A stretch of DNA of 64,000 nt from contig JBEKOJ010000001.1 of the NCBI GenBank assembly GCA_049521895.1, forward strand, positions 554,478-618,477, given 5' to 3'. Made by a program: the position numbers and the translations under genes. Positions 13,448-40,168 of the stretch are shown piece after piece (the first letter of the stretch is position 1; each line of letters starts with the position of its first letter). The notes under the pieces were generated by a model. The model was not told where the DNA came from. It ran no database searches and saw only the letters and a list, made by a program, of their open reading frames with translations. Origin of the DNA: Candidatus Saccharimonadales bacterium. Its GTDB lineage: Bacteria > Patescibacteriota > Saccharimonadia > Saccharimonadales > UBA10212.

Positions 13448-13479
13448 ACCTATAGCCTATAGGGTTTAGGGACGAGGGT

Positions 13480-16598: not shown

Positions 16599-16638
16599 GA
16601 GCCGATAGCCGAGAGCTTAGAGCTGGTAGGATAGGGTC

Positions 16639-16998: not shown

Positions 16999-17001
16999 CT
17001 C

Positions 17002-18066
17002 ATGGCTATTGACGTCATTCGCTTACAAAACTTTCGTTCTTATGAGGACGAAAGTTTTGAATTTGAATATGGCGTCAATATTGTGGTCGGGCCGAATGCT
17101 AGCGGCAAAACCAATCTGTTAGAAGCGATCTTGGTTCTGGCCCGCGGTGGTTCATACAAAGCCCACGACGCAGACCTAGTGCGGTTTAACAAGCCGTGGG
17201 CCCGCCTGGACGGTTATTTTGGCAAGCAAAGCCGCTTGGCAAAGCTGGTTTTGCGCAACGATAAGGCTGACAAAAGCTTTTTAATTAACGATAAGCCGTA
17301 TAGGCGCCTGAGCCTCGAGCGCACCGTGCCGATAGTATTTTTTGAGCCCAACAATTTACAGTTAATTACTCGCGGCCCCGACCAGCGGCGTGAATACATT
17401 GACGAGCTATTGGAGCGCAGCTTACCGGGCTTTAAGGCTTTAGCCGCTAACTACCGCCGCGCCCTGGCCCAACGTAATGCTCTACTGAAATACCATCCGA
17501 CACAAGGGGCTAAGCAGTTGTTCGCCTGGGATGTACGCTTAAGCGAACTCGGCGGTAAAATAGCCGCTGCCCGGCAACAGTTAGTTGATCAAATCAACAA
17601 AAACCTCAGCAAAAATTATAATCAGATAGCCCATAGCCGAATTAGCGCCCGCCTGAACTATAATAGCCACTTCCCGGCCGAAGCCTACGCCAGCAAAATG
17701 CTTTCCAAGCTATCCGCCAGCAGCCAATCAGATTTCGATAGAGGATTTACGGCTTACGGCCCGCACCGCGAGGACATCAGCTTTTCGCTCAACAAAAAAC
17801 TTGTCGGCCAGACCGCCTCGCGTGGCGAGACACGCAGCCTGATGCTGGCCTTAAAAATTTTTGAATTGGATTTGATAGAAAAAACCCGCGGCCAAAAGCC
17901 AATCCTGCTACTAGACGATGTATTTTCCGAACTGGACGGCGCCCGCCGCCGCTCGCTGGTCAGTTACCTAAAAAAATACCAAACTATTATAACTACTACG
18001 GATGCTGATGCGGTCATAGAGTATTTCGGCAACAAGCATAAAATGATCGCGTTATCCGGTCGTTAG
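17002..18066 (+). CDS. recF: DNA replication and repair protein RecF
   Basis: Walker A VVGPNASGKTNLLEAI and a C-terminal LLLDDVFSELD Walker B/signature; order dnaA-dnaN-recF. Confidence 0.85.
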   Translation: MAIDVIRLQNFRSYEDESFEFEYGVNIVVGPNASGKTNLLEAILVLARGGSYKAHDADLVRFNKPWARLDGYFGKQSRLAKLVLRNDKADKSFLINDKPYRRLSLERTVPIVFFEPNNLQLITRGPDQRREYIDELLERSLPGFKALAANYRRALAQRNALLKYHPTQGAKQLFAWDVRLSELGGKIAAARQQLVDQINKNLSKNYNQIAHSRISARLNYNSHFPAEAYASKMLSKLSASSQSDFDRGFTAYGPHREDISFSLNKKLVGQTASRGETRSLMLALKIFELDLIEKTRGQKPILLLDDVFSELDGARRRSLVSYLKKYQTIITTTDADAVIEYFGNKHKMIALSGR

Positions 18067-18759
18067 AATCTGTTCAGCGCGGTTGAAAAAATCAGCGAAC
18101 TGTGCAGCTACCACTGCTTCAGGAACAGATTTGGTTGGCATGGCGTCCGTAGCGGATTGGCTGGTCCATTCACCGAACGGTGGGTGAAAACCGTCAATGT
18201 TCTCTGTATCTACAGAATAAATCCTAGAGTTGTGGGGGTCCTGGAGCGTCTGTATGGCTACCTGGCCCGGGACGAAGTCTCCGTTGATATCGAAGTGCGT
18301 CAAAGCTAAATTTACCCTTGTTCTTTTGAAGCCACCAAAAACCTTGGAATCAGCGCCCAGAATTACCGCCGCCGCAATGGGCACTTTTTCACCTTTGAGA
18401 GTCTGGACCATCACCCAATTGTAATGACCCGGGCTTGTCCTGTCGGGTGTCGAGACGTATTGCGTTGTGCCTTTATTGTGATGACCGGGTGAAAATTTAA
18501 CCTCTTTCGCCAGACCTTGCAGCTCTTTATCTACTACGGCAATAAATGCCTGCGGTCCTCTTTCAGCCTGATAAATCATCTCCTGCCTTACGCCAGTGTC
18601 TGCGTGCGACAGCTCCACTGACTTTGCGACAGCAGGCCCGGCAGTAAGACTAAACACGCCGGGGATGCTACTTACGAGGGCGCCCACATGCGCTCTGCGG
18701 CTATGCTTATTCCTAATCTGATTGGGGTCTTGAGTCTGGTTATGTTCGTTAGATTTCAT
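18052..18759 (-). CDS. hypothetical exported protein (last gene of the T4SS-like operon)
   Basis: N-terminal signal-like hydrophobic segment; no recognised catalytic motif. Confidence 0.3.
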   Translation of the reverse strand: MKSNEHNQTQDPNQIRNKHSRRAHVGALVSSIPGVFSLTAGPAVAKSVELSHADTGVRQEMIYQAERGPQAFIAVVDKELQGLAKEVKFSPGHHNKGTTQYVSTPDRTSPGHYNWVMVQTLKGEKVPIAAAVILGADSKVFGGFKRTRVNLALTHFDINGDFVPGQVAIQTLQDPHNSRIYSVDTENIDGFHPPFGEWTSQSATDAMPTKSVPEAVVAAQFADFFNRAEQILTTG

Positions 18760-18796
18760 TGCCTCGCATTATATCATATATGTTAGCCGTAGTCAA

Positions 18797-19366
18797 TTAA
18801 TGCCCCTGGCCAGTATCGTCTTCGCTAATAAGCCAACCGCTTCCCTGCTTAATCAACACTAGGATTGGTGGTGGTTGCTGCCCGGTATGCACCCAACCAA
18901 ACTCTAACGACGAAGCAGGAACCTCTTTCCCGGTTTTTTGGTCGATTGCCTTGTCGGTTAGAGAGCATAAAATAGTGCCGTTTGCACTCGTCGGCTTACC
19001 ATATACTCCCTGCCAGTAGCAATTGCTGGTAGTAGCTCTAACTATGTAGCCATTTTGATGCGCGTAAGTGTAATCATATGGGATGCTACTAGTTGAGGGG
19101 TTTTGAGCGGGCTGTAAATGCATAAACCACTCTTGGGTAACCAGGGGTTTAATCGTTGATAACCAGGAAGACGGTGACGATTGATCTACCCCGATACTGT
19201 TTTCCCTCGCTTGTAAATATTTGTCAATTACTGAAAGTACTGCTTGAGAAGGAGTACTATAGGCCTTTGGCGCTGGGGCGTTGTTACGTTTAGTCAGTAT
19301 ACCTATGGCTACTACCAATACTAAAATAGTGGCTAAGCAGGTTACTAGAAGCCTTTTATTACGCAT
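18797..19366 (-). CDS. hypothetical N-terminally anchored membrane protein (VirB8-like topology)
   Basis: A single N-terminal TM helix (LLVTCLATILVLVVAIGIL) followed by a roughly 160 aa extracytoplasmic domain; the size and topology resemble VirB8/TcpC, but there is no sequence-level proof. Confidence 0.25.
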   Translation of the reverse strand: MRNKRLLVTCLATILVLVVAIGILTKRNNAPAPKAYSTPSQAVLSVIDKYLQARENSIGVDQSSPSSWLSTIKPLVTQEWFMHLQPAQNPSTSSIPYDYTYAHQNGYIVRATTSNCYWQGVYGKPTSANGTILCSLTDKAIDQKTGKEVPASSLEFGWVHTGQQPPPILVLIKQGSGWLISEDDTGQGH

Positions 19367-19379
19367 ATTATTTAGTCTC

Positions 19380-20726
19380 CTACTGCGGCGGCACTATGCC
19401 ATTAAATTCAAAGTGCATAAAGTCTTTCGGTTGCTGCCAGTTGCCACCCCAGGTGAACCCGTTATCGTTAAAAGCTGTAATGTATTCTTGGGGCATGTCG
19501 TGCGGGACGTCTGCCCCGCTTTCTGAAAACGGGTTTGTGTCCCAGTTGATATCACACGCCGCACCATATGTATGGTAACTACGAAGGCCGATATTAGATG
19601 TACCATTATCTGAGTCAAATCGATAACAGCCCATTTCTCGGATTTGATATGTAGAGCCACTTTGTTGAATCTCCAGTGCAACGGCGGAAAGGCAGGGAGC
19701 TACCAGCGGATTAACCTGGACGGAATTACCCAGGAAATTCACTGTTACTTGTTTTGCTTCCATAGATGCATGATCATCTTGAGTGCCGGGATCACCGAAA
19801 ATTGCTGTTAATTGGGCTTGAGAATATTCACCGCCTGAACCGCCTACGGATCCAGTAACTGGACTGTTAACACCGCAAGAACCAGAACCCGAAAAACAGG
19901 GACTACCATAACCGGAAGTTGAACCACCGGAAAAAGCTACAGGTAGTGGTACGGGCGAAGCCACGTCCCAATACTGGTTAATTAATGATTGCGCTTGCCC
20001 AACAAACGCTTTGTAATTTGAACCATCGGAGGTCGCAGAGCCTTGGACGGCCTGGACGGCTACCCAAGGTTGCCATGATTGCCAACCTGATTTGTCTTGT
20101 AAGCCTTTGCTTAATGCTGAAGGCGCATTTGACCCCGTTGGGCTTCCAAAAAATGCCTCGGCCGAATAGGCCGGGTCCATAAGTTGCCAAACCGCCGCTT
20201 GGTTGGAATCAGCTTCTGGCCCGGATGCGATGGTACTCCAATTCTGCGATGGTCTTTGCTGAAATACGCCTACAGAATCAAAATTACTGCCATCACCCTG
20301 CTTAGTCGGATTACTTTCTGATACGGGGACAGTTGTATTAGCAAGGATTGTTAGATGAGACTCGTCAAGTCCGGCCATCAATCCGACTAGTGCAGCATCC
20401 TTTCCAAGATTGTTCGTCTTGGCAATACCCATAATTGTCTTGGCAACTTCTACTTGTGATCGGCTAATTGCGGTACCCCCGTCACTGGCGCTACCGCTGC
20501 CTGTGGTAATGCCGGGGCTGGAGCCACAATAGCTACTACTGATACTATTCGGGTCATAATATGGGGTGCCGCCCAAAATGCTCTGGATGTCGGAGCTGGA
20601 TATGGCAGCTACTGATGGTTGAAGAAAAAGCACAAGGATCCCAGTCAAATAAAGTACTGACCTAAGATGACGGTGAATGGGAAATATCCGCGCTAAGCGT
20701 CTAACCTGATACATTTTGTACCCCAA
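19380..20726 (-). CDS. secreted peptidase M15 (VanY-like D-Ala-D-Ala carboxypeptidase fold) cell-wall hydrolase
   Basis: A signal peptide and a Gly/Ser-rich linker; the C-terminal SYHTYGAACDIN fits the S-x-H-x-x-G-x-A-x-D zinc motif of the M15 family and DFMHFEF supplies the second His. Confidence 0.65.
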   Translation of the reverse strand: MGYKMYQVRRLARIFPIHRHLRSVLYLTGILVLFLQPSVAAISSSDIQSILGGTPYYDPNSISSSYCGSSPGITTGSGSASDGGTAISRSQVEVAKTIMGIAKTNNLGKDAALVGLMAGLDESHLTILANTTVPVSESNPTKQGDGSNFDSVGVFQQRPSQNWSTIASGPEADSNQAAVWQLMDPAYSAEAFFGSPTGSNAPSALSKGLQDKSGWQSWQPWVAVQAVQGSATSDGSNYKAFVGQAQSLINQYWDVASPVPLPVAFSGGSTSGYGSPCFSGSGSCGVNSPVTGSVGGSGGEYSQAQLTAIFGDPGTQDDHASMEAKQVTVNFLGNSVQVNPLVAPCLSAVALEIQQSGSTYQIREMGCYRFDSDNGTSNIGLRSYHTYGAACDINWDTNPFSESGADVPHDMPQEYITAFNDNGFTWGGNWQQPKDFMHFEFNGIVPPQ

Positions 20727-23268
20727 CTAGCTCGTTAAGCGTGTTTTGGTAGCTTTCGTTGAGTCGCCAACGGAAGACCATATTATTATTTGGCCCCAAA
20801 TTCGACGATGAGCAGTTACCAGAGTCTATGACATTACCATCACTATCTCGTCTAATCGAACCGTCTGTTAGCAAGTTGCCTATCTGGGCATTGGGGTCAG
20901 GCGTTAAGTTGCCTTGATCGTCTGACAAGTACCCAAAGCAGTGCGCGTACGCCTTGGCTATAGAAGGGGCTTGACCGCTATCCGCTAAAATCTTAGCGTT
21001 GACCAGCGGATCGTAACTCGGGTCGTCATTTATCAGTTTTTCTTCGGCTGTGCTCCAGCCAAACTGGACCATGTTGTAGTCGCTGTTTACATCGCTGGCG
21101 GTAGCAGCCGCGGCGTGGCCTATTAATAAGTGGCTAAAAGGCGAGAATATTGTGGCAAAAAGCTTTGGAATGTGAGTAAAAAGATTTGGTAGGTCGCTAA
21201 ACTTCCAGCTGGAAATTTGCATGGCAAAATTTCCGAACAGCGAGTTGGGGTTGGAAAGGGCGAAGTATTTTTCATATGTCCCTTGGCTCTGATTCTGCAG
21301 TGCTACATAGGACCTATCCTCAGTTTCCACTGATTTGGTCTCTGTGGTTGTCAGCGGCCTGCCAAACTGCTGTTGCTGGGTCATCTGGTTACCATATGCC
21401 GTGAAGCCCATGTCGGCTTGGTTGGCAAAATCATTACTGTCCATACCGTTTATGAACGACCCCATCTCGGCGAGCACTATCATCCGTGCGGCGTACGAGG
21501 CGCCAGTAGTCAAGGCGGCACTTTTACCGGCACTGACGGCATATTTTTGAGCCGTATTTCTAATTGATGCCCGTCCTTCGCGGGTCACGAACTTCTGGAT
21601 TAGCGGTTGAACTACAGCCTTCAGGGCATCCGAAGCCGTTTGGCTGGCTGTTTCTTCGCCTGCCTGTGATTCACCGCCAGTAAAAACGGCGGCAAATAAA
21701 TTACCGATTGTCAGCCCGCCGGCAACCCAGATGCTGGTTATCGCCGGGCACACGGTTTTGACTATATTGCCGGCGTAAGTGGCGACTAAACTATTGCCAA
21801 ATAGCGCGCTAAAAATTGTAAAGTCCCCGGTGCGTCCGGCTTGCGGTGAAACCTCACCCGAAGTATCAGCGTAACCGTTTTTAGCGATTTGTGCAGGTAT
21901 AGAATCGGTTATGTCGCCGATTCTCCTGTTCATGGCGGCCACGGCTTCGGCGGTGGTACCGCCGCCTTTTTCCTGGTCGGCACTTATAGCTACCGCAAAA
22001 GCGGTTTTTATGGCGGCGGCATTTTGGCTGTTTAGAAAAGTACTTGAAGCTTGAGCCGAACCGTCATAAACCAAGCAGACCGGCAAACCTATGGCATAAA
22101 CCGGGGAAGTATAAGATAATATTTTGGAAAGCCCGCCGCTGGCTGTCGCCGAACTTACTCCGTTATTAATGGCATCAGTGATTGATGAAGCGAGGCCATT
22201 ATTCTTTACCAACTCGTCGGTGCAGGGATCATTAGCCAGACAATTTTTAAGGGCTTGCTTACCATCGTCCACAGCAGTTTGCTCAGGCGCTGTTACCAGC
22301 TTATCATTGGCGGGTGTATCGATCTTGCTCTCAGCGTCCCGCAAAGCTTGTCTATCGGCAGCAGCTTGTTTCAAACCGCGGTAATTGGCACCCAGCTTCT
22401 CCCACCACTGCAGACTGATACCGTAGGAGCTTAGCAGCTGTTTGGATACACTGCTTCGTACTAAGTAGTTACTACCATCAAGAGCCTCATTGACTCCACC
22501 GCTGATCTGCGCTGAAAACCGTATACGCTCCTTATAGTTATTGACCAGATCACTGAGACTGCCATATTTGTAATTTGGCACCTCTATCCGCTCGCCGTTC
22601 ATAATTATGGCGTTAAGTTTCTGGGCACCGAGGACACCTTTACCATATTCAAAGTCCAAAACGCCGTTGGCTTTCATATTACTAATAACTTTCGTAGGCC
22701 TAAAGGTATTGAATGTCTTACCCAAAGGAGTCTTACCAACCAAAGCCGTGGTGTCACCCTCAACCCCGGCGTCAAATGCTGCTCGATCAGCAGTTAGGAT
22801 GGAAGACTGCTTATAAAATGTCCGAGACAGCCGGGCCAGGCGGTAGCCCTCGATTTCGGCTGCCAGCTGCGGGAGTTTGAGGGATGGTAGTAAAAGTGCT
22901 AGGAAGAAAATTATCGGTAAAATGATCAAACCTGCCCCACCGCCGGCAATTAATACAGCCCGACGGTGCTGACCAAACCAGGAGGGTTTTTGCAAAACAT
23001 GCCTATAGCCTCTGCCTACTTGATTAGCGTGTCTCGACAAAGCCGAATCATTCGGGTTATTTTGCGGCTCTTGTTTACCGTCCCCGCCGGTTGGTTCTCG
23101 TTCTGCACTTCCAAGTTCCTCGCGACTAGGTGTGTCATCACTTTTTTTACTAGTTCCGCCTGGAGCGGAGGAAGGCGCATTGCCTGGTTGATCATAACTG
23201 CCTCCTGAGGATTGATATAAATCTTTCGGTTCGCCTTGGCCGTACCTGGTATCATCTGTATCAGGCAT
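20701..23268 (-). CDS. large membrane-anchored protein of the T4SS-like locus (function unknown)
   Basis: 855 aa; a disordered acidic/Pro-rich N-terminus, a single TM (AVLIAGGGAGLIILPIIFFLALLLP) and a large extracytoplasmic domain. Confidence 0.3.
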   Translation of the reverse strand: MPDTDDTRYGQGEPKDLYQSSGGSYDQPGNAPSSAPGGTSKKSDDTPSREELGSAEREPTGGDGKQEPQNNPNDSALSRHANQVGRGYRHVLQKPSWFGQHRRAVLIAGGGAGLIILPIIFFLALLLPSLKLPQLAAEIEGYRLARLSRTFYKQSSILTADRAAFDAGVEGDTTALVGKTPLGKTFNTFRPTKVISNMKANGVLDFEYGKGVLGAQKLNAIIMNGERIEVPNYKYGSLSDLVNNYKERIRFSAQISGGVNEALDGSNYLVRSSVSKQLLSSYGISLQWWEKLGANYRGLKQAAADRQALRDAESKIDTPANDKLVTAPEQTAVDDGKQALKNCLANDPCTDELVKNNGLASSITDAINNGVSSATASGGLSKILSYTSPVYAIGLPVCLVYDGSAQASSTFLNSQNAAAIKTAFAVAISADQEKGGGTTAEAVAAMNRRIGDITDSIPAQIAKNGYADTSGEVSPQAGRTGDFTIFSALFGNSLVATYAGNIVKTVCPAITSIWVAGGLTIGNLFAAVFTGGESQAGEETASQTASDALKAVVQPLIQKFVTREGRASIRNTAQKYAVSAGKSAALTTGASYAARMIVLAEMGSFINGMDSNDFANQADMGFTAYGNQMTQQQQFGRPLTTTETKSVETEDRSYVALQNQSQGTYEKYFALSNPNSLFGNFAMQISSWKFSDLPNLFTHIPKLFATIFSPFSHLLIGHAAAATASDVNSDYNMVQFGWSTAEEKLINDDPSYDPLVNAKILADSGQAPSIAKAYAHCFGYLSDDQGNLTPDPNAQIGNLLTDGSIRRDSDGNVIDSGNCSSSNLGPNNNMVFRWRLNESYQNTLNELVGVQNVSG

Positions 23269-23274
23269 CGGGAG

Positions 23275-25197
23275 CTAGACTCCAGTGGTCTGTTGGTCAG
23301 CCGGAGAAGATACGGGTTCAGCTGGCACTTGCATTGCTTGTAGATCTACCGACTGTTCAAGGCTTGGCTGAGGGGTTACGCTGGAATTAGTTGAAATCAA
23401 GTCGGTCTCGGTCGGGCTGGCGATGACTTGGATGTGTACATGATTCTGGCCAGCGAAAAATAGCCCCTGGCCAACCGGGAATTGGCTGAGGCGCTTTTTT
23501 TCCTCGTCAGTTAGCTTAAATACGTCAGCTAATACATCTACGGCGGTTGGCGATTGCTTGAGCAAAATCTGCACGCTGGCGTTGGCCACCACTGCCCGGC
23601 CCATGCGGCTAGCCATGAAATCTTCTACGTCCTGCGTAACCGTAGTTAGTCCAAGGTCGTATTTGCGCGCCCGCTTAGCCAGACTGAACAAAAAGTTGGC
23701 ACTGTCTTCATAGCGCATTAATTGCCAGGCTTCGTCAACTATCAAGATGCGGCGTTTACGTTCGGCTTTAGTCCGGTTCCAAATGTAGTTGAGAACTATA
23801 TACATGGCGACAGGCCTGAGCTCGTCTTCCAGGTCGCGGATATTAAAGACTACCATCGGGTTATTGACATTGACATTACTGGGCTGGCTGAAAATACCGG
23901 CGAAGGTACCGCTGGTATATTTGCGTAGACGCTGGGCCAGCTGTGGGCCGGTACCGCCCATATGCAGCAACGTGTCATAAAGGTCGCTCACAGTAGGCGG
24001 TGGCGAACCATGGGTCAGTGGGTCGTTGGTGATTCCGGCTTTGGCGTAGGTTTCAATCAGAGCGGCATCAAGATCGGCTTCCTCCGTAGGGCTAAGTGCC
24101 GGTACCGTTGTAGTTGCCCCTTGGGTTATCTGAGTCTGGGCACCGCCCATCATTAAGCGCAGTAAACCATGCAAAGTTATCAGATTAGACCGGAGCGCAT
24201 TATCGGCCTCTTCGGCATCAACCACCTGCGGCAAATCGAACGGGTTTATGCGGGTATCGCTATTTAAACTAAGCCGTATATATGTACCGCCCACGGCATC
24301 GCACATCTTTTGATACTCGTTTTCCGGATCGACAATAAAGATTTCGGTTCCGAACATCATGCTGCGTAGCGCCTCCAACTTAACAGTGAAGCTTTTGCCG
24401 GCGCCGGATTTGGCAAATACCACACTGTTGCCGTTCTCCAAGCTAAAGCGGTCAAAAATTACCAAGCCGGAGTTGTGCATGTTAATGCCGTAAAGAATGC
24501 CATTATCCTGGGTTAAGTCGGCGCTGGTAAACGGGAAACTGGTAGAAATGGCGCCAGTATTCATGTTGCGGTAAATCTGCAACTGATCAGTAAACTGCGG
24601 CAGGATACTATTTAAGCCTTGCTCCTGTTGGGTGCTGGCGGCTTTGGAATAGACCAGCTGCTGTCCCAGCAGCGACTCTACCTTGTGGCTGATAAACTCC
24701 AGCTCCTCCAACGAGTCGCCATAAATCGTAAAGTACAGCCCGAAGCGGAAAAAACGCTCCTCGCCTACCTGCAGCTTATCGCGCATTTCTTCGGCGTCCT
24801 GTACGGCGGCCTGCTTGCCTGGGTCGCGCACCCTGCCCTTTTCGGTGTCAATCTGAATGCCGGCCTCCAGCTGACTGACTTTTTTACGCAAGTTGTTTAA
24901 AACTACTTGGTTATCAACGGGGTGGATTATAATTGACAGGTCTATAACTTCGTCGAGGTTGACCATGCTTGATAGCCAGCCGGTATAAATCTGACGAGGA
25001 TAGCCATAAACGTAATATGCCCGGGCGTAACGGGTCCCCAGCTGAAAGTAATTATTGTTAAATACTAGTGAGCTGGGCGCGATAAAATCCCGTAGCGCCG
25101 TGATGCCTTTGGTAAAAGCGGCATTAACCTGCTGTTGTTCCATGGCCTGCAAGGCCGCTGGATCCGTCGTGGAGGACTTCCTCTTAAATAATGCCAT
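23275..25197 (-). CDS. VirB4/TrbE-family type IV secretion ATPase
   Basis: Walker A FAKSGAGKSF, Walker B RRILIVDEAWQLM (a DEAW-type box), a downstream LGLTTVTQDVEDF motif, and an N-terminal domain with the YPRQIYTGWLSSMVNLDEVIDLSIIIHP pattern seen in monoderm VirB4 homologues. Confidence 0.8.
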   Translation of the reverse strand: MALFKRKSSTTDPAALQAMEQQQVNAAFTKGITALRDFIAPSSLVFNNNYFQLGTRYARAYYVYGYPRQIYTGWLSSMVNLDEVIDLSIIIHPVDNQVVLNNLRKKVSQLEAGIQIDTEKGRVRDPGKQAAVQDAEEMRDKLQVGEERFFRFGLYFTIYGDSLEELEFISHKVESLLGQQLVYSKAASTQQEQGLNSILPQFTDQLQIYRNMNTGAISTSFPFTSADLTQDNGILYGINMHNSGLVIFDRFSLENGNSVVFAKSGAGKSFTVKLEALRSMMFGTEIFIVDPENEYQKMCDAVGGTYIRLSLNSDTRINPFDLPQVVDAEEADNALRSNLITLHGLLRLMMGGAQTQITQGATTTVPALSPTEEADLDAALIETYAKAGITNDPLTHGSPPPTVSDLYDTLLHMGGTGPQLAQRLRKYTSGTFAGIFSQPSNVNVNNPMVVFNIRDLEDELRPVAMYIVLNYIWNRTKAERKRRILIVDEAWQLMRYEDSANFLFSLAKRARKYDLGLTTVTQDVEDFMASRMGRAVVANASVQILLKQSPTAVDVLADVFKLTDEEKKRLSQFPVGQGLFFAGQNHVHIQVIASPTETDLISTNSSVTPQPSLEQSVDLQAMQVPAEPVSSPADQQTTGV

Positions 25198-25212
25198 GGG
25201 CTCTCCACAACG

Positions 25213-25333
25213 GATTTATCATTTTCCATTTATCATTTTCCATTAATTTAACATTGACCATTGGGCATTGGCTGAAATTGTTAAATGACAAATGGAAAAT
25301 CAATGCGAAATGTGAAATGCGAAATGTGAAATG
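25213..25333. repeat. AATG/CATT-pentamer hairpin element (5' of VirB4 gene)
   Basis: ATCATTTTCCATTTATCATTTTCCATTAATTTAACATTGACCATTGGGCATTGG ... AAATGACAAATGGAAAATCAATGCGAAATGTGAAATGCGAAATGTGAAATGG; the CATT arm and AATG arm are roughly reverse-complementary. Confidence 0.6.
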
Positions 25334-25338
25334 GCTCA

Positions 25339-26241
25339 TCATGATGAGCCTTCCTCACCCACGTTGGGTTGGGGCACCGTGCTAGTGTCTTTAGTAATGA
25401 CTGGCGAACTTAAATCATCAAAGTTCTTGAGCTGCTGGCGGGTAGCGGTGTCGGGGTTGTAAGCGTCGTAGTAAAGCTCGATCAGCTCCTGGGTGTCTAG
25501 CGGCAGGCTCTGCACACCGCACTGCATCAGGCCTTGCATGACAGCTTGCACACGGTTGCGCAACTCAGTCTTGGCTTTTTCCATCGTATTTTCATCAATC
25601 ACTACGTGCGGCGTTTTATTCTTACTGAATACCTCGGTTAAACCAGTAAAAAAACTAGTGCTTTGGCGCAAGGCACTGCGGGCGTTCTCGCTGATATCCG
25701 GATAGCCAATCACCAAGTAGAATTTCTTGTCCATGATGTTAGTCTGCTGGGCGATGTCGGCCAAAAACGCTAGGTAATCTTCCATGAGCATCCCCAGCAG
25801 CATGTTATCCTGTCCTACCCTGATTTTATCCAGCTTTTCTAAATATGGGCGTAAATCAACTTTCTGGCTGCGGATGAAAATCTGCACCGGAAAATATAGC
25901 GAGTTCAAAAAGCCTTGGTAGCTAAATTCAACAGCCTCGCGTTCCTGCGGGCTCATGAGATCAAAGTTTATGGATTTGCACATAACAACCGCCCGGAATG
26001 TACCGTCGTTCATGATTACTACACCGTCGCGAACCTCGCTAATTAGCAGAGTGTTCTGGGTGCTGTTTGGGCTGGATGTGGTAGCTTTTGGTGTTGCCGC
26101 CGGGGCTGGCCCGCTGCTGGCTGGATCAGCCGGGGCAGCAGCACTGCCCGGAGCAAATTCCTCGCCGGGATATGTCGGTTGGGGTTGGCTGGCTGCTGGT
26201 TGTTGCGGCGACCTACTTGGATTCATCCCGTTAGACTCCAC
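25339..26241 (-). CDS. hypothetical T4SS-associated protein (possible VirB4 N-domain-like)
   Basis: Pro/Ala-rich N-terminus followed by TLLISEVRDGVVIMNDGTFRAVVMCKSINFDLMSPQEREAVEFSYQGFLNSL, which resembles the N-terminal substrate-entry domain pattern of VirB4/TraC; encoded between the VirB3-like and VirB4 genes. Confidence 0.3.
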   Translation of the reverse strand: MESNGMNPSRSPQQPAASQPQPTYPGEEFAPGSAAAPADPASSGPAPAATPKATTSSPNSTQNTLLISEVRDGVVIMNDGTFRAVVMCKSINFDLMSPQEREAVEFSYQGFLNSLYFPVQIFIRSQKVDLRPYLEKLDKIRVGQDNMLLGMLMEDYLAFLADIAQQTNIMDKKFYLVIGYPDISENARSALRQSTSFFTGLTEVFSKNKTPHVVIDENTMEKAKTELRNRVQAVMQGLMQCGVQSLPLDTQELIELYYDAYNPDTATRQQLKNFDDLSSPVITKDTSTVPQPNVGEEGSS

Positions 26242-26415
26242 ACAACTTTCGTACTATTAGTTAACGTCTGAAACTCAGTGATTGCTTCAGCGATCGCATA
26301 AACTTTGTAGGTTTTCTGGAGTCTAACGAGATTCATATTTTTCCACCCTAGCCCGCCTCAATTTTACAAAAGTTTTTGGCGGGTAAATTTTGATATTGCG
26401 CTACGCTCCAATACT

Positions 26416-27561
26416 TTAGTGCAGGGCGACGACAAATTCATTAGGGCTGACCTGCTGCACTTGATTATTGCGATTAGCCAAATGGGCAATTGAGGCCACG
26501 CTTAAATCATTACCGCTTTGGGCTAGCTCCAGTTTAGCAGCTTGCACCTCCGGTGTCACCTGTTGCATCTGTGTATTATTTGCCGGTTTTTGAGTGGTGG
26601 GGGCAGCCCTGTCTTTTGGAGCCGTAGGTTGGCGCGGGGATGGACCCGGTTCAGTGCCAAAATGCTTCGGGAGTTTGCTTTCAAGTTCAGCCTCCTCGTG
26701 GTGCAGGCGATCCAGTAACTGCCTTTCCTCATCCGTTAGATTTGATCCACTTTTATCGTTACCTGTGCTGGAGCCAGGAGCCACGATATTTTTACCCACA
26801 AAGGTAGTGGTGCCAGTTTGGCCATTGGCAGCCTGCTGATCTAGGAAAGTGGAGTCAACGCCCGGCTGTACGGTGGCTCCACCGGCCCGGGCAGCATCAA
26901 TTTTATCAGTGATGGCATTTTTCCGGTTGTCGTCTGCCTGTTGCATCAAAGTTGCAAACTTCTGGGCGGTGGGATTATTCTGCTCGTCTAAAATATCATC
27001 AGCAGCGCGGACATCAACCACCGGTATATCTTGGGTCAGACTGGAAGCTCCAATTAGGCGGTCGGAATCAGCTTGCTCACCCTCTAAATAACCCGGAGCT
27101 GCACCTATATCAACCGCCACGTTTTTAACAGCCCAACCGCGGCTATCCAGTGTACCCGCCAAAGCCTGCAGACGGCTGCGAACTTCTGTTTGCGATAGGT
27201 TTTTAGTGAGCTGTCTGGCGATCTTTTTTGGAGCGGTGATAGTTACCAGCTGGTTAATACCGCTTTGGTCCCAGATGCGGGTGTGTGGCTTAAAAAAGAA
27301 CTTTATGTGTGACAGCAACCACACTTCCGTGGGCTGCTCCCGGCCTAGTGGACTGGCCAAGACGCCAAATAAGGCCATCGGAGGCAAAAAGGCTAGCATT
27401 AATATCCAGCGGACGGAGCCTAGGCTATTGGCAACCAAAAAACGGAACTCCAAAAAGAGCGATACTCCGGCAATCGCCGCATAGACGAAGCTTTTTAGAG
27501 TCAGCGGCCCGACCAACTTATCTTCAGACTCAATGTCCTGAATTACTTTATATACAGCCAT
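26416..27561 (-). CDS. VirB3-like small-membrane-domain protein with a long C-terminal tail
   Basis: Two TM helices near the N-terminus (FVYAAIAGVSLFLEF ... ILMLAFLPPMALFGVLA), the usual VirB3/TcpE topology, immediately upstream of VirB4 genes; the tail is low complexity. Confidence 0.3.
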   Translation of the reverse strand: MAVYKVIQDIESEDKLVGPLTLKSFVYAAIAGVSLFLEFRFLVANSLGSVRWILMLAFLPPMALFGVLASPLGREQPTEVWLLSHIKFFFKPHTRIWDQSGINQLVTITAPKKIARQLTKNLSQTEVRSRLQALAGTLDSRGWAVKNVAVDIGAAPGYLEGEQADSDRLIGASSLTQDIPVVDVRAADDILDEQNNPTAQKFATLMQQADDNRKNAITDKIDAARAGGATVQPGVDSTFLDQQAANGQTGTTTFVGKNIVAPGSSTGNDKSGSNLTDEERQLLDRLHHEEAELESKLPKHFGTEPGPSPRQPTAPKDRAAPTTQKPANNTQMQQVTPEVQAAKLELAQSGNDLSVASIAHLANRNNQVQQVSPNEFVVALH

Positions 27562-27611
27562 AGTTTTCTACCCTTCAGTATCCGATACATAAGCGTTATA
27601 CGCAACATCTT

Positions 27612-30600: not shown

Positions 30601-31034
30601 TTGCCGGCAGTATAAGATTGCCCTATGTAGGAGACATTATTCCAAGCGAGTGATTCTTGATCAGTCTGGCCAGCGACGAGTGGCTGCCCATCACTGTTCT
30701 CTAAGGCTATGCCGGTTGGTGGAGTCGGACCGTAGCTAGTTTGGTAAGTAGCGGTAGTAAAAGCCGTGGCGATGGTGCTGCTGCCATAGTTAAAGTTATT
30801 AATGCCATTGGTGGTAGGGCTAAGGTCGCAAGTATCAAGTACGCCGCCAGACGCACTAAAGGCAACCTTGTACGCACAAGCTTGCCAGAACTCTACCGTA
30901 GTTTGTGGAGGAGAGGTCACCGGAGGGATTGGGGGCACGTAAAGCGCAAAAGATGTTGCGTGAAATAGGAAAAAGAATACCGCTATCCCCACCGATAGGC
31001 CGAGCCCAGTTTTTATTTTCCTGTAAGTTTTCAT
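27612..31034 (-). CDS. VirB6/TrbL-like polytopic channel protein with large N- and C-terminal extensions
   Basis: 1140 aa; a signal peptide, a roughly 300 aa Cys-containing extracellular domain, then at least 6 TM helices with the TrbL/VirB6-like pattern (AILVIVMLVMVISQAIGGGPF ... LLIFSPLALAIWILPG), then a roughly 550 aa cytoplasmic domain ending in a Pro/Ala/Thr-rich tail. Confidence 0.55.
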   Translation of the reverse strand: MKTYRKIKTGLGLSVGIAVFFFLFHATSFALYVPPIPPVTSPPQTTVEFWQACAYKVAFSASGGVLDTCDLSPTTNGINNFNYGSSTIATAFTTATYQTSYGPTPPTGIALENSDGQPLVAGQTDQESLAWNNVSYIGQSYTAGNSPDTREVKFYVYQPAAGAPNGTDFALLASINSDGSLQVLALVYDVAKDGKVFAAPINQVAIGSTATGGKCAPDDTSATCGPVSASSGISTSGNACDLKSNGWSLAWFACPALEAADSAATNLMHVFEQQLPFCIIQSGLNCNAQNNGAQNLGSGQGQVRTAWSLIKNIATAILVIVMLVMVISQAIGGGPFDAYTVRKMLPKMVIATILMQISWPLFAWVVDIVNDIGNGLGDLMYAPFGGASNLDFGSLLTNAHITGGQATLVGYLGGLIGLTLGIAFLPTLLFAVFSAALTLLIGLAVLVFRKILIILLLIFSPLALAIWILPGQGPQRLWKMWLDNFTKVLMMFPLIVAIIAAGRIFAYVSGATNNGSFINFWLVIAGYFLPLAILPKAYKWGGTAMSAAGNSLGNMQRSIQSATKQPLKNWAREKTTDKWANNYNPLKKTLGSRRLSSALQSIAGGRVVPTKAAKAKMLFRGQQWSSTMAERNDALRNNFVRKAQEQGMPADMVRKYDRLAREKYGMKELDKDGNDTGRSGLFSAEELDQGMRPNAIGSGKKSSQILAMMATEKNDSELLKSIGRYNVQARSLLEMADKSFVFPQQDPVTKNYKMVPIWDWRPLVDQAFKDPSLWGELGGMRPDLTPNNVPRGGARYQKILAKAGFRRGRDVNGREFDVSKDAIRDNPREERYAEEFTNPDGSLHYKPYLMQKLQALDEDTLGIIQAGKNTLLTFAKEISGWNQGNGYYGEGKSALPAQEFTDFIVKQAGSESGLRSMASLKSTDSHKQAIDNALKASGYTQFKGADGEIHDLTVDNIFGVNERAFAKMHASADYEPAKSELVPPPTGPAAPAGAPAPATTGPASTSTTAPATAAETAATTPSGPPQETPTYAPGEAQPTSLGSVAFNRFSNELAENTVATQRLAREMAARRTGTQPTIGVPTPTGEIRIVHEPVYQPGDTIRPVVGTSSGIVMPPGIRSVEPQPRNEEESPPSEPAPPST

Positions 31035-31162
31035 TTTGGTAGTACTGTCAATAGAAATATAGCATAAGAGTCTTAAGTCAACAATCTGTGAGACCAGATT
31101 ACGATTTCATCCAAGCAGCTTATCCTTATTTATGATATATTGCTACTTAGTAAAAGCGTTTT
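31035..31162. promoter_or_regulatory. divergent promoter region between the T4SS core operon (minus) and the pilin-like gene array (plus)
   Basis: A 128-bp AT-rich intergenic region between divergently oriented operons. Confidence 0.3.
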
Positions 31163-31681
31163 ATGAAAACGAGAAACAAAAACTGGTTAGGTACATACAG
31201 AATGCTGATATCAAGCGTAGCCATAATGTTGCTTATGGTAGCTTTCTTACCAAATATGGTTTCGGCTGCCACCGACCCCGCTTGTCAAAAATTTCTCGAT
31301 TCAAAAGGCAACGCTACACCCGACTCAACACAGTGTGAAAATACAACACCAATAGCTTGTCTTGAATTTGATCGATCTACCGTACAGGCTGAAAGTAAGT
31401 TTGACGCTTGCTTATCTCAGAATGTCCTAGTGCCGAAGAATAGTCGAATAGTCCAAGACCTTAACGATATTGTTAGTGTTCTCAGTGGCCTGGTGGGCAT
31501 AGCGGTAGTCGGCACCATCATATTAGGTGGTATCCAATACTCTGCGGCTGGTGATAAACCCGAGGCCTTGCAAAAAGCTAAACAAAGGATTACCAACGGC
31601 TTGCTCGCCCTAGGAGTGTTCTTACTGATCTTTGCATTTTTGCAATGGATAATACCCGGAGGTGCATTTAATTCGCCATGA
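31163..31681 (+). CDS. VirB2/TrbC-like pilin candidate, paralog 1
   Basis: Signal peptide (LISSVAIMLLMVAFLPNMVSAA), a 4-Cys variable head, and a C-terminal two-helix hairpin IAVVGTIILGGIQYSAAGDKPEALQKAKQRITNGLLALGVFLLIFAFLQWI. Confidence 0.45.
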   Translation: MKTRNKNWLGTYRMLISSVAIMLLMVAFLPNMVSAATDPACQKFLDSKGNATPDSTQCENTTPIACLEFDRSTVQAESKFDACLSQNVLVPKNSRIVQDLNDIVSVLSGLVGIAVVGTIILGGIQYSAAGDKPEALQKAKQRITNGLLALGVFLLIFAFLQWIIPGGAFNSP

Positions 31682-32085
31682 TGAATATATTTTTTGCTAA
31701 ATTAAGCTGGTTGATAACTCAATTTGCTGCGGTGCCTAGTGCTTGTACAGCTCATCAATTCTTCTTTTTCCCTACATGGTGGGAGTATTTGCCGGATAAG
31801 CGGTTTACAACTGATGCCGTTGGGCAATGTCTGATCAACTTCCGATTTCCTGGGGATATTCTACCGGTCGGTCTAGCAGTTCTGGATATATTGCTACGCC
31901 TGGCCGGTTTTGTAGCTGTGGTATCAATCATTGTTGCCGGCTTCCAGCACTTATTTACTGGCGGTAATCCCGAAAAAGCGGCGTCGGCCCGCCGCCGCCT
32001 GTGGAACTCACTCATAGGTCTTGGGATAGTCATAACGGCTACAGCGGCAGTAACCTTTATCGGTAATCAAATAGGGCAAACATGA
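31678..32085 (+). CDS. VirB2/TrbC-like pilin candidate, paralog 2
   Basis: Hydrophobic N-terminus, 2 Cys, and a hairpin VAVVSIIVAGFQHLFTGGNPEKAASARRRLWNSLIGLGIVITATAAVTFI; overlaps the previous gene by 4 bp. Confidence 0.45.
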   Translation: MMNIFFAKLSWLITQFAAVPSACTAHQFFFFPTWWEYLPDKRFTTDAVGQCLINFRFPGDILPVGLAVLDILLRLAGFVAVVSIIVAGFQHLFTGGNPEKAASARRRLWNSLIGLGIVITATAAVTFIGNQIGQT

Positions 32086-32369
32086 GTATTTTTAGCGTAT
32101 TGCAGCTTATCAATCCTCAGCAGGATAACCTGCCCCGGACCCAAGCTAACAACGATACTTTACAAGCTATACTCACTGATGTGTTCGTGCTGCTTGGCGC
32201 AATCGCCATTTTTATGATTGTGGTCGCCGGCCTACTGTATATAACCGCCCGAGGTAATCCAGAGAAAGTTACTACAGCCCGTAACCGCATACTTTATTCT
32301 GTGATGGGTTTGGTGCTGGCCGCCTCGGCCGTGGCTATAGTCAACGTAGTACTAGGGAGGGCAGGATGA
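32082..32369 (+). CDS. VirB2/TrbC-like two-helix hairpin protein, paralog 3 (no signal peptide, no Cys)
   Basis: VFVLLGAIAIFMIVVAGLLYITARGNPEKVTTARNRILYSVMGLVLAASAVAIV is the same hairpin motif without the variable head. Confidence 0.4.
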   Translation: MSIFSVLQLINPQQDNLPRTQANNDTLQAILTDVFVLLGAIAIFMIVVAGLLYITARGNPEKVTTARNRILYSVMGLVLAASAVAIVNVVLGRAG

Positions 32370-32800
32370 AATACAAGCTCAAAGTACTAGTGCTAGGACT
32401 AATATCTTTTGTGGCCTTTCTGGTGTTACCAGTCAATACCTATGCAGCATTCAACCCCTTAGGTTCGGCTTGTCCAAAGGGCAGCAAAGCTGCTAACGGT
32501 ACAGTCTGCAAGGATAACAGCTCCCAGATAAATAGCGGGCAAAACCCGGCAGTCCATACCATACATGTAGCTACCAATTTAATAGCGCTGACTGCGGGCA
32601 TAGTCGCTGTGGTTATCATAATAATCAGTGGCTTTATGTTTGCTACTGCCGGGGGAAGTATTGGTGGCCAACGGGCTGGCGATAATCCCACCAAGGCTAG
32701 AAATGCTCGGGCAGCACTTATTGGTTCACTCGTCGGTCTGGCTATTGTCGCGCTGGCCTGGTCCATAGTAACCTTTATAACAGACCGCGTGGTTCACTAA
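32366..32800 (+). CDS. VirB2/TrbC-like pilin candidate, paralog 4
   Basis: Signal peptide with an AxA-type cleavage site (NTYAAF), a 2-Cys head, and a hairpin LTAGIVAVVIIIISGFMFATAGG ... AALIGSLVGLAIVALAWSIVTFI. Confidence 0.45.
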   Translation: MKYKLKVLVLGLISFVAFLVLPVNTYAAFNPLGSACPKGSKAANGTVCKDNSSQINSGQNPAVHTIHVATNLIALTAGIVAVVIIIISGFMFATAGGSIGGQRAGDNPTKARNARAALIGSLVGLAIVALAWSIVTFITDRVVH

Positions 32801-32821
32801 AATGAAACTTAGGTAAATAAT

Positions 32822-33331
32822 ATGCTTTCAATTAAAAAAATAACCGGCGTATTGGGATTAAGTCTTGTATTTTGCGGCTTCACTCTTTTTGCGGGCCCAG
32901 CACTAAAAGCATTAGATCCATGCGATACTAACGGTGATGGTCAAGTAAGCACCCAAGAAGCCATCCAGTGTGGTAGTAATGGTGCGGCAGGCACAACACA
33001 GACCAGCGACCAAGCTTCGACGAATCTGGATAACACAATACTCTCCATAGTCAATTATTTATCAATAGCGGTAGGTATAGTAGCTGTTGTTATGATCATA
33101 ATGGGCGGCTTCCGTTACATAACTAGCGGCGGCAAACAAGAAAGTATTGTCGGTGCCAAAAACACTATCACCTATGCTATTGTCGGGCTGGTTATTGTGG
33201 CCTTGGCCCAAGTGATAGCTAGATTCACACTGAATACGGTTACGACAAGCAGCACTCAATCTACGTCGAGCAGCACGCAATCTACGACCCAGAGCGGCAA
33301 TAATCCTTGTGTGCCCGGCAAGCCTTGCTGA
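32822..33331 (+). CDS. VirB2/TrbC-like pilin candidate, paralog 5
   Basis: Signal peptide, a 2-Cys head, a hairpin LSIAVGIVAVVMIIMGGFRYITSGGKQESIVGAKNTITYAIVGLVIVALAQVIARF, and an extra Ser/Thr-rich C-terminal tail ending NPCVPGKPC. Confidence 0.5.
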   Translation: MLSIKKITGVLGLSLVFCGFTLFAGPALKALDPCDTNGDGQVSTQEAIQCGSNGAAGTTQTSDQASTNLDNTILSIVNYLSIAVGIVAVVMIIMGGFRYITSGGKQESIVGAKNTITYAIVGLVIVALAQVIARFTLNTVTTSSTQSTSSSTQSTTQSGNNPCVPGKPC

Positions 33332-33411
33332 TAACCGCTTGTCATAAGCGGGTTGACTGTGCTATAAGTGCGTATATACTCATAATAAGGTAGATAAAAA
33401 GGAAATTTAAA

Positions 33412-33837
33412 ATGCTCAATAAAATCAAAACTTTAATACTGTCTCTTAGTTTACTCATCGTACCAGCCGTGCCTTTGGTAGCTGGAGGGGTGGTCAACGC
33501 TGATACTAGCCAAACCACGATTCAAAGTGGTGAATGCGGTGGCGCCGACACCTTATCTCTAAGTTCAACCAACGGAAATAACTGCAATATACAGGGAAAT
33601 TCAAGTTTAGATCATGTGATCACCACTGCGGTCAATGTACTGTCTATTATTGTCGGTGTTGTGGCTGTCATTATGATCATCATTGGCGGCTTTCGTTATA
33701 TTGCCAGTGGCGGCAAACAAGAGAGTGTCAGCGGCGCTAAGAATACTATACTGTACGCCATCATTGGGCTGATTATAGTTGCACTGGCGCAGGTCATAGT
33801 TCGCTTTGTGCTGAACAAAACTACCGCTAATTCCTAG
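33412..33837 (+). CDS. VirB2/TrbC-like pilin candidate, paralog 6
   Basis: Signal peptide, a 2-Cys head, and a hairpin LSIIVGVVAVIMIIIGGFRYIASGGKQESVSGAKNTILYAIIGLIIVALAQVIVRF that is nearly identical to paralogs 5 and 7. Confidence 0.5.
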   Translation: MLNKIKTLILSLSLLIVPAVPLVAGGVVNADTSQTTIQSGECGGADTLSLSSTNGNNCNIQGNSSLDHVITTAVNVLSIIVGVVAVIMIIIGGFRYIASGGKQESVSGAKNTILYAIIGLIIVALAQVIVRFVLNKTTANS

Positions 33838-33861
33838 TAGGCAGCAGGCTAATAATCTATA

Positions 33862-34293
33862 ATGTGGGGCGTGACAAGAGCTAAAATTATATCTTGGCTG
33901 GCCGCTTTTGTGGCTTGCATGACCCTAACTCTAGGATTGTCGGCAATACCAGTAGCTTTTGCCCAGACAGTACAACAGCAGATTAATAATGGCCTCTGTG
34001 CCGGCTCAAACTTACAATTTGATAACTCCACCGCTAGCTGTAGCAGCAGTAACGCTAACACCAGCATAAATAACATAGTTCACACCATAGTTAACCTGCT
34101 CTCGGCAATTGTCGGCATCGTGGCCGTCATCATGATAATTGTCGGCGGTCTGCGCTATATTACCAGTGGTGGTAACGACACGAGTGTCACCAGCGCCAAA
34201 AATACTATCCTCTACGCTATAGTCGGTCTTATTGTGGTTGCCCTTGCACAGATCATAGTGCGCTTTACGCTCAGCAAAGTTACCAACAGCTAG
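33862..34293 (+). CDS. VirB2/TrbC-like pilin candidate, paralog 7
   Basis: Signal peptide, a 2-Cys head, and a hairpin LSAIVGIVAVIMIIVGGLRYITSGGNDTSVTSAKNTILYAIVGLIVVALAQIIVRF. Confidence 0.5.
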   Translation: MWGVTRAKIISWLAAFVACMTLTLGLSAIPVAFAQTVQQQINNGLCAGSNLQFDNSTASCSSSNANTSINNIVHTIVNLLSAIVGIVAVIMIIVGGLRYITSGGNDTSVTSAKNTILYAIVGLIVVALAQIIVRFTLSKVTNS

Positions 34294-40165: not shown

Positions 40166-40168
40166 GCC

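Follow-up and report, generated by a model that had tools for sequence, protein, structure and literature searches.

The window analysed here, 64 kb of contig JBEKOJ010000001.1 from a Candidatus Saccharimonadales bacterium with positions counted from its first letter, carries at 18052-34293 the genes of a type IV secretion system (T4SS). Eight adjoining minus-strand genes (18052-31034) are followed by seven small plus-strand genes (31163-34293) divergent from the machinery genes, and the open reading frames (ORFs) were found at the coordinates and in the order claimed beforehand by the original prediction, an earlier reading of this DNA made from its letters. We consider it highly probable that the locus is a vertically inherited chromosomal T4SS of Saccharibacteria, orthologous to SEML1_0004-0019 of Southlakia epibionticum, acting as a host-contact pilus or conduit rather than in conjugation. 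The features of the locus are the following (aa, amino acids; TM, transmembrane):

18052..18759, minus strand: orphan protein, 235 aa; twin-arginine-like N-terminus (SRRAHVGAL...)
18797..19366, minus strand: orphan protein, anchored in the membrane or exported, 189 aa; one TM segment at the N-terminus (aa 3-28)
19380..20726, minus strand: secreted two-domain peptidoglycan hydrolase, 448 aa; muramidase-like N-terminus and M15 C-terminus
20701..23268, minus strand: bitopic giant, 855 aa; cytoplasmic N-terminus of ~100 aa, one TM segment (aa 102-137), ~720 aa outside
23275..25197, minus strand: VirB4 ATPase, 640 aa, CD1110 family, Gram-positive/MPF_FATA type; by NCBIfam, Pfam, PDB and motifs
25339..26241, minus strand: TrsD-like protein, 300 aa; NCBIfam TrsD, E = 7.8e-7
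26416..27561, minus strand: PrgI/VirB3-like protein, 381 aa; Pfam PrgI, two TM helices
27612..31034, minus strand: extended VirB6-like polytopic membrane protein, 1140 aa; by topology, fold match and Pfam hits of orthologues
31035..31162, no strand: divergent intergenic region, 128 bp, separating the VirB6-like gene from the pilin array; by gene arrangement
31163..31681, plus strand: pilin 1, 172 aa; PF18895 38.5 bits, long N-terminal extension with Cys, C-terminal two-helix hairpin
31678..32085, plus strand: pilin 2, 135 aa; PF18895 35.0 bits, position-2 type
32082..32369, plus strand: pilin 3, 95 aa; PF18895 49.1 bits, TrbC/VirB2 E = 4.1e-5, hairpin core alone without signal peptide
32366..32800, plus strand: pilin 4, 144 aa; PF18895 29.2 bits, TM pattern
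32822..33331, plus strand: pilin 5, 169 aa; PF18895 48.5 bits, Ser/Thr-rich C-terminal tail
33412..33837, plus strand: pilin 6, 141 aa; PF18895 53.8 bits, TrbC E = 1.9e-5
33862..34293, plus strand: pilin 7, 143 aa; PF18895 54.8 bits, TrbC E = 1.7e-6

The VirB4 ATPase, recognised beforehand by its GAGKS and DEAW motifs, scored 367.3 bits against the NCBIfam model conju_CD1110 (cut-off 325; model positions 185-734 aligned), matched Pfam P-loop_TraG (E = 1.1e-27) and the solved domain of a Gram-positive VirB4 (PDB 4ag5, E = 6.5e-51), and contains both the Walker A sequence AKSGAGKS and a VDEAW box. The 300-aa protein, which had been described as resembling a VirB4 N-domain, covers positions 11-134 of the same CD1110 model (E = 9.9e-7). 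An hhalign comparison of its family with the first 240 aa of the window VirB4 found the two unrelated (probability 0.4%) and, since they also match different segments of the CD1110 model, TrsD-like protein and VirB4 are complementary pieces and not duplicates. The earlier description was right: the 300-aa protein is the TrsD of the pGO1 subclass among Gram-positive systems and corresponds, as the product of a separate gene, to the very N-terminal part of full-length Gram-positive VirB4. Homologues of it adjoin virB4 on 61 plasmids, mostly of Bacillota with a few of Actinomycetota and haloarchaea, and the gene just upstream of virB4 on a Pontibacillus plasmid encodes a protein 32% identical to it (E = 8.6e-34). 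For comparison with relatives we used a scan of one genome per species, in which at least 547 genomes encode a close VirB4; the best 80 VirB4 matches, 77-86% identical to the window protein and essentially all labelled Saccharibacteria or Saccharimonadales, define the related loci referred to below. The TrsD-like protein is present in 79 of these 80 loci.

The two membrane proteins encoded upstream complete the predicted platform of the motor. The VirB3-like protein matched Pfam PrgI (PF12666) over aa 5-96 with 29.3 bits (cut-off 27), and its two TM helices (aa 25-73) are followed by a long hydrophilic C-terminal extension; the gene lies directly upstream of the TrsD-like gene in 73 of the 80 related loci. 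The 1140-aa protein, for which a VirB6/TrbL relationship had been proposed, begins with a signal or anchor segment and an extracytoplasmic stretch of ~270 aa, in which Cys240, Trp251 and Cys254 are conserved, continues with a TM core (aa 300-560, with 6 or more TM segments between aa 305 and 535) and ends in a hydrophilic tail of ~600 aa. The protein itself had no match in Pfam or NCBIfam, and a search of its profile against PDB sequences returned nothing meaningful; Pfam TrbL/VirB6 matches were obtained for 4 of 48 orthologues (best E = 1.9e-4). An AlphaFold2 (AF2) model of aa 225-640, built from an alignment of 18 sequences, reached a mean pLDDT (predicted local distance difference test) of 67.5, and when it was compared with the whole PDB by Foldseek, the best 7 matches all came from TrwI/VirB6 of plasmid R388 (TM-score to target 0.45-0.56, E from 3.6e-3). 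The modelled VirB6 fold of the 1140-aa protein is thus confirmed by two methods together with the TrbL hits in orthologues. A precomputed Pfam label carried by homologues of this protein, PF19590, was not reproduced with current Pfam and was not relied on. In many relatives, 1-3 kb of extra coding sequence lies between the VirB6-like gene and PrgI (5469-7985 in locus L013 and 5073-7771 in locus L060), a space of only 50 bp in the window; this extra sequence probably corresponds to a second VirB6-like gene and an NTF2-like gene, as in S. epibionticum.

All seven proteins of the divergent array exceeded the gathering score of Pfam PF18895 T4SS_pilin (26.6 bits) with 29.2-54.8 bits, which bears out their earlier description as pilin-like. 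Four of them also matched TrbC/VirB2 with E <= 4.1e-5 and a fifth with E = 3.9e-4, all under the TrbC gathering score. The window pilins are 23-51% identical among themselves; pilins 5-7 are the closest, with 44-50% identity between pilin 5 and pilins 6 and 7. Arrays in related loci most often comprise six genes and follow a positional pattern, in which the gene adjoining VirB6 is almost always of the long pilin-1 type, the second is in most cases of the pilin-2 type, the third is in most cases a short gene of 92-119 aa, and 2-5 copies of the pilin 4-7 type follow. Positions 1-3 thus appear to be conserved positional orthologues, an orthology assigned by best hits and not by phylogeny, and because these positional orthologues are conserved, the array pilins would seem to be specialised subunits rather than a case of simple antigenic variation. 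A tblastn search of plasmids with pilin 7 gave no match, this protein probably being too short and hydrophobic for tblastn.

On the other side of virB4, the 855-aa giant is bitopic, as had been anticipated, and had no family match in Pfam or NCBIfam. An iterated hidden Markov model (HMM) search started from it showed, in 59 of 59 loci, that the gene immediately following virB4 encodes a member of this fast-evolving family. Among 49 members of this family, the C-terminal domain detected is a VanY-type M15 peptidase in 13 and M23 in 4, and CHAP, GDSL lipase, GDPD, Exo_endo_phos and beta-lactamase2 occur in one case each. About 35 of the 49 members run 100-350 aa past the end of the window copy; because most relatives thus extend past its end with a C-terminal enzyme domain, the window giant can be described as a 'headless' variant, and the M15 domain is carried instead by the next gene, that of the 448-aa hydrolase. 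The layout of the giant family is modular and resembles that of polymorphic toxins, with an enzyme domain that differs between species. The AF2 model of the 855-aa protein was poor (mean pLDDT 42.7, from 7 sequences), Foldseek found nothing in the PDB below E = 3 with it, and the family profile matched, among PDB sequences, only the C-terminal VanY domain of other members.

The 448-aa protein had been read as an M15 peptidase acting on the wall, and proved to combine two hydrolase domains behind a signal-like segment (aa 23-43). Its aa 66-193 match the muramidases of PDB 8b2h (E = 2.7e-10) and 8b2e (E = 3.4e-8), and its C-terminus matches Pfam Peptidase_M15_4 (aa 382-440, E = 7.8e-16) and the L-alanyl-D-glutamate peptidase of PDB 2vo9 (aa 379-442, E = 3.2e-5). 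Encoded two genes past virB4, this hydrolase takes the VirB1-like role. The 189-aa protein, in which a VirB8-like topology had been noted, does fit VirB8 in its topology. It has just 2 homologues among 5.8 billion proteins, too few for a structure model, and no match in the 80 related loci, Pfam, NCBIfam, PHROG or PDB sequences (none below E = 0.2), so that 'VirB8-like' describes its topology and VirB8 homology is unsupported. Its gene holds the position of the small exported proteins in the orthologous locus. The 235-aa protein likewise had no homologue in the 80 loci and no match in Pfam, NCBIfam, PHROG or PDB (none below E = 0.2). The 37 bp that precede the 235-aa gene hold a strong promoter-like site (TTGACT-17-TATAAT with an upstream TG, 18796-18768 on the minus strand), and this gene may be expressed on its own.

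In relatives, the stretch between virB4 and recF is variable (4.6-8.8 kb), and its architecture is kept while its sequences are not: a giant of 780-1485 aa with a TM segment near residue 100 is followed by a secreted protein of 390-850 aa and by 1-3 small exported proteins. The genes after the giant in other species encode shuffled wall hydrolases, and PEGA/CarboxypepD_reg beta-sandwich proteins too; the numbers of members with a Pfam match were as follows:

Phage_lysozyme2: 30
M23: 9
CHAP: 9
NlpC/P60: 7
Amidase_3: 6
SLT_2: 5
SLT: 2

The genes of the operon are tightly spaced, from a 26-bp overlap up to a 174-bp gap, and its last gene (235 aa) shares its final 15 bp with the 3' end of recF. 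Both promoters, that of the operon and that of the pilin array, presumably sit in the 128-bp region between them, in which a promoter consensus scan found no strong site. Towards recF the flank reads rnpA-yidC-jag, dnaA (13871-15250), dnaN, a small gene for a four-helix bundle and recF, and the end of dnaA is 2.8 kb from the operon. On the pilin side lie hsp20, a second four-helix-bundle gene, comF (35578-36276) and tRNA genes; comF starts 1285 bp past the last pilin gene. Three DnaA boxes with one mismatch are clustered in the rnpA-dnaA spacer (13695-13798). Over the whole window the count of such one-mismatch boxes is not above chance, and the origin is placed here because of the dnaA context and of this local cluster. 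The GC content of the locus (0.47-0.52) equals that of the flanks. The two four-helix-bundle genes (16639-16998 between dnaN and recF, and 35161-35523 between hsp20 and comF) belong to PF05635, '23S rRNA-intervening sequence protein'; they are sporadic in relatives, where tblastn matched them in 5 and 1 of the 80 loci, respectively, and their site is not constant, so that they seem to come and go.

Wherever the flanks were present among the 80 loci, the same order was found, comF-hsp20-pilins-VirB6-PrgI-TrsD-VirB4-[variable]-recF-dnaN-dnaA, and the hsp20-comF neighbourhood was conserved in the 20 loci that reached comF. This answers the synteny comparison across Saccharibacteria that had been proposed as a check, and it argues against an integrated conjugative element. 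Measured against the proteins of the window, median identity was 82% for VirB4 (a value somewhat inflated, since the loci were picked by VirB4 similarity), 62% for the TrsD-like protein, 40% for PrgI, 34-49% for the pilins and about 31% for the VirB6 core, as compared with 69% for DnaA and 65% for DnaN. In all 31 loci that allowed comparison of the three, VirB4 outscored both DnaA and DnaN in conservation. The giant can be traced in relatives only by profile, and the hydrolase and the small exported proteins are not detectable. Conservation thus drops steeply from the cytoplasm outwards and, because of this gradient and of the fixed synteny, we regard the locus as core machinery passed on vertically, with surface parts that evolve fast, and not as a mobile element.

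The original prediction had also reported that no coupling protein, VirB11 or relaxase is visible in the window, and our searches agree. Pfam scans of the ORFs of at least 110 aa taken as genes found no VirD4-type coupling protein (T4CP), VirB11 or relaxase in the 64 kb, tblastn of the window gave no match to either of two queries, an actinobacterial T4CP and a relaxase-like protein, and a P-loop census of the window recognised NTPase domains only in DnaA, RecF, VirB4 and one ABC ATPase.

This system, which nearly all Saccharibacteria have beside the replication origin, is already in the literature: published accounts cover what it is composed of, that it has no relaxase, its arrays of pilins and its proximity to dnaA (PMC7427843, PMC10633639, PMC12102498), and the locus is not an unrecognised block. 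McLean et al. 2020 (PMC7427843) described a conserved Saccharibacteria region with VirB4, VirB6, VirB2 and 4-6 small secreted proteins, adjoining a competence gene. Wang et al. 2023 (PMC10633639) annotated the S. epibionticum locus SEML1_0006-0019, directly after dnaA-dnaN-recF, remarked that it resembles Gram-positive conjugative systems, has unusual pilins and is without coupling protein or relaxase, and found by transposon sequencing (Tn-seq) in strain ML1 that nearly the whole T4SS locus is essential and comF is not. In the phylum survey of Quinonero-Coronel et al. 2025 (PMC12102498), the VirB4 proteins form a distinct clade allied to MPF_FATA, TrsD, PrgI and VirB6 are widespread, 441 VirB2 arrays of 2-11 genes were counted, relaxases are almost absent, T4CP homologues lie mostly far from virB4, and proximity to dnaA was noted. 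A 2025 review (PMC12857230) speaks of the first T4SS essential for its bearer and records that deletion of comEC leaves viability intact.

The gene order of the window matches SEML1_0004-0021 position by position, in a comparison made with the published table (order and sizes) and not with sequences. S. epibionticum ML1 and Nanosynbacter lyticus TM7x (PMC7427843) share the order dnaA-dnaN-recF, two small exported proteins, hydrolase, giant, VirB4, TrsD-like, and then PrgI, VirB6-like, divergent pilins, hsp20, comF and tRNA-Ser; gene sizes are similar, and these loci are likewise without coupling protein or relaxase. Differences concern the accessory parts. The window has one VirB6-like gene, whereas ML1 has two, with an NTF2-like protein bearing a twin-arginine (TAT) signal between them, and seven pilins instead of the six of ML1. 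The C-terminal M15 domain of SEML1_0007 is missing from the window giant, and the 448-aa gene fuses M15 to a muramidase, whereas SEML1_0006 has two lysozyme-like domains and a cysteine peptidase. With the Patescibacteria-clade T4SS (PMC12102498) the locus shares an MPF_FATA-allied VirB4, a nearby TrsD, PrgI/VirB3, VirB6, the lack of a relaxase and the vicinity of dnaA, a placement that rests on the 77-86% VirB4 identity to Saccharibacteria and not on a VirB4 phylogeny. The arrays of VirB2-like genes in that clade, 2-11 genes of low mutual identity, also correspond to the window array, and we see no essential difference between the two systems.

Beyond the phylum, the closest resemblance is to the MPF_FATA systems (pGO1 Trs/pIP501 Tra, pCF10 Prg and C. 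difficile CTn CD1110), which, like the window, have no outer-membrane components and no VirB11. The core order of MPF_FATA is VirB6-like, VirB3-like (PrgI/TrsC), TrsD, VirB4 (TrsE/PrgJ), a large membrane protein and a two-domain wall hydrolase, and the window has this core gene order in common with it. Unlike the MPF_FATA plasmids, the window has no coupling protein, relaxase or oriT, its locus is chromosomal and vertically inherited, and it bears a VirB2-type array; its best plasmid VirB4 matches are at most 38% identical and all come from monoderms (Actinomycetota and Bacillota). A locus on the 898-kb plasmid NZ_CP062975 of Pontibacillus sp. ALD_SL1 (7477-17030 of our extract L081) is collinear with that of the window: it has two pilin-like genes (one annotated as 'Mbov_0395 family pilin-like'), genes for a 779-aa polytopic and a 116-aa VirB3-like protein, a 274-aa TrsD-like protein (32%), VirB4 (36%) and a 1050-aa DD-metalloendopeptidase, with no T4CP or relaxase adjacent. 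It differs in lying on a Bacillota megaplasmid beside flagellar genes and in having two pilins versus seven, and the profile of the 855-aa family found no sequence similarity to the Pontibacillus giant. Because this plasmid locus is collinear and includes pilin-like genes, it suggests that pilin-bearing T4SSs of Gram-positive type exist outside Patescibacteria. Because the best plasmid VirB4s are found in monoderms, the TrsD-virB4 neighbours lie mostly on Bacillota plasmids and the Pontibacillus locus is collinear, the machine appears to be of Gram-positive (MPF_FATA, pGO1/CD1110-like) ancestry, with the link to conjugation lost and a VirB2-type pilin array gained or kept. On the Embleya sp. 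plasmid NZ_CP108778 the set is classical and includes genes for a T4CP and a relaxase-like protein, and the annotated 'PrgI family protein' (349 aa, 10365-11414 of extract L082) is a fusion with a PrgI-like N-terminus and a TrsD-like middle part.

From these components a working model can be drawn, in which the VirB4/TrsD motor, seated on the PrgI(VirB3)/VirB6 platform, would pull pilin hairpins from the membrane to build a pilus or tube, the hydrolases would cut through peptidoglycan, the cell's own and possibly that of the host, and the pilus or tube, on contact, would connect the cell with its host bacterium and let macromolecules pass. We accordingly favour a pilus or conduit for host contact, serving the epibiotic lifestyle, over DNA conjugation; the non-conjugative role that had been suggested for the locus agrees with the fixed synteny, and a role in host interaction is plausible. 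Several points weigh on the other side. The pilus, the channel and any cargo are putative, a VirB8-like component was not found in the window, the confidence of the VirB6-like model is only moderate, and the choice of loci by VirB4 similarity flatters VirB4 in the conservation gradient. The source genome may encode a VirD4-like protein outside the window, and S. epibionticum is reported to have a VirD4-like gene, far from virB4 and non-essential. Moreover, a 2024 perspective (PMC11665869) calls the role of the T4SS 'completely unknown'. VirB4-centred systems that do not conjugate have precedents in Helicobacter ComB and Sulfolobales Ced, which import DNA, and in Bordetella Ptl and Brucella VirB, which export proteins. 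In all four the T4CP and/or the relaxase is absent, as in the window, but they belong to diderms or archaea, have other accessory sets, and none of them is essential for the growth of its bearer.

As regards what passes through the system, export and import seem to us about equally likely, DNA uptake of the competence type unlikely and conjugation very unlikely. One reading is the export of effectors into or onto the host bacterium without a dedicated coupling protein, in the manner of Bordetella Ptl or Brucella VirB; McLean 2020 (PMC7427843) and Wang 2023 (PMC10633639) both proposed export. Protein-secreting T4SSs without T4CP do exist and the fast-evolving secreted enzymes of the operon could be cargo, but the 'secreted array' behind the analogy with Ptl consists of VirB2-type pilins and not of toxin subunits, and neither an effector family nor a secretion signal was identified, which leaves export a tentative reading. 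An import conduit or 'feeding tube', drawing host cytoplasmic macromolecules such as RNA or nucleotides into the epibiont, would suit organisms that lack nucleotide synthesis and in which competence is dispensable, so that another import route is needed (PMC11665869). A 2026 preprint (bioRxiv 10.64898/2026.06.21.733656) on another cultured member of the phylum reports uptake of host RNA and tubes at the parasite-host interface that penetrate the host envelope and are possibly T4SS pili, and the locus holds many envelope-attacking enzymes, including the lipase and phosphodiesterase domains on homologues of the giant. The link between this locus and uptake is putative, however, the assignment of the tubes to a T4SS is tentative in the preprint, and known VirB4-driven systems export for the most part, so that import too is doubtful. 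A more elaborate proposal joins several of these elements: a host-piercing conduit, its outward parts a fast-diversifying set of tools against host envelopes, in which the 855-aa family carries swappable enzymes (wall peptidases, lipase, glycerophosphodiester phosphodiesterase and domains of nuclease/phosphatase type) and the pilus is heteromeric (three conserved specialised subunits from positions 1-3 and variable copies of the major type), and which takes up host cytoplasmic macromolecules such as RNA. We put it forward as a speculation that is unlikely to hold as a whole.

The original prediction had pointed to comF, as a DNA-uptake gene, and had offered DNA uptake as a possible function beside host attachment. 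The adjacency of comF to the pilin array (1.3 kb) is real and conserved with the hsp20-comF neighbourhood, T4SS-derived importers without relaxase or T4CP are known, and the window VirB4 shows a similarity to CedB and CedD that is weak and far under the family cut-offs. A competence machine working with ComF, like Helicobacter ComB or Sulfolobales Ced, is nevertheless quite improbable. In S. epibionticum, comF is non-essential while T4SS and pilin genes are essential (PMC10633639), deletion of comEC abolishes transformation and leaves growth unaffected (PMC12857230), and transformation is ascribed to type IV pili and ComEC (PMC12857230); because of this published genetics, the essential role of the system is not competence-type DNA uptake, and a functional link to comF is argued against.

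That the locus is an integrated conjugative element or the decayed remnant of one, with relaxase and coupling protein beyond the window, is extremely improbable: homologous machinery is found on conjugative plasmids of monoderms, and the gene of a large serine recombinase (40967-42730) adjoins a tRNA-Ser gene, but in every related locus with flanks the neighbours are again recF-dnaN-dnaA and hsp20-comF, DnaA is less conserved than VirB4, the GC content shows no anomaly, the recombinase is set apart by hsp20, comF and tRNA genes in a tRNA-bracketed 5.8-kb segment of its own, no integrase was found bordering the locus, and relaxases are reported in just ~100 Patescibacteria genomes, seldom near virB4 (PMC12102498). 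We rejected this explanation on synteny, given the fixed position between recF and hsp20-comF in related loci, and the host-contact pilus or conduit is retained as the favoured reading.

The segment with the recombinase has features of its own. Two tRNA-Ser genes with identical 30-nt 3' ends, tga (36835-36923) and cga (42660-42749), bracket ~5.8 kb with four orphan ORFs (two of them with weak matches to membrane proteins), a tRNA-Arg gene and the serine recombinase, which matches a PHROG integrase (E = 1.9e-94) and whose ORF overlaps the second tRNA-Ser gene at its end. The whole (36835-42749) may represent a small element that has integrated here, distinct from the T4SS locus. Just past comF, an exact 25-nt direct repeat (36308-36332 and 36486-36510), in which the 3' end of tRNA-Ser(gct) is copied 178 bp away, has the look of an att-type scar left by an earlier integration. 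At the other end of the window, positions 1-11353 hold a surface-polysaccharide cluster with several glycosyltransferases, a Wzy-like polymerase and a GDP-mannose 4,6-dehydratase; the GC content of the first 6 kb is lower (0.41), and a Cas2-like/PaaX_M ORF (10865-11353) stands alone, no further cas gene being visible.

The window adds one more orthologous locus and not a new system, and what it contributes is minor comparative detail: the VirB6 fold, the swappable C-terminal enzymes of the giant family, pilin positions 1-3 and the collinear Pontibacillus locus. The system to which it belongs is the only described monoderm T4SS with VirB2-type pilins, and it is one of the main open problems in the biology of Patescibacteria, being conserved across Saccharibacteria and essential for growth on the host. 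The conservation gradient, the swappable domains of the giant, pilin positions 1-3 and the Bacillota locus could guide constructs and hypotheses in culturable relatives.

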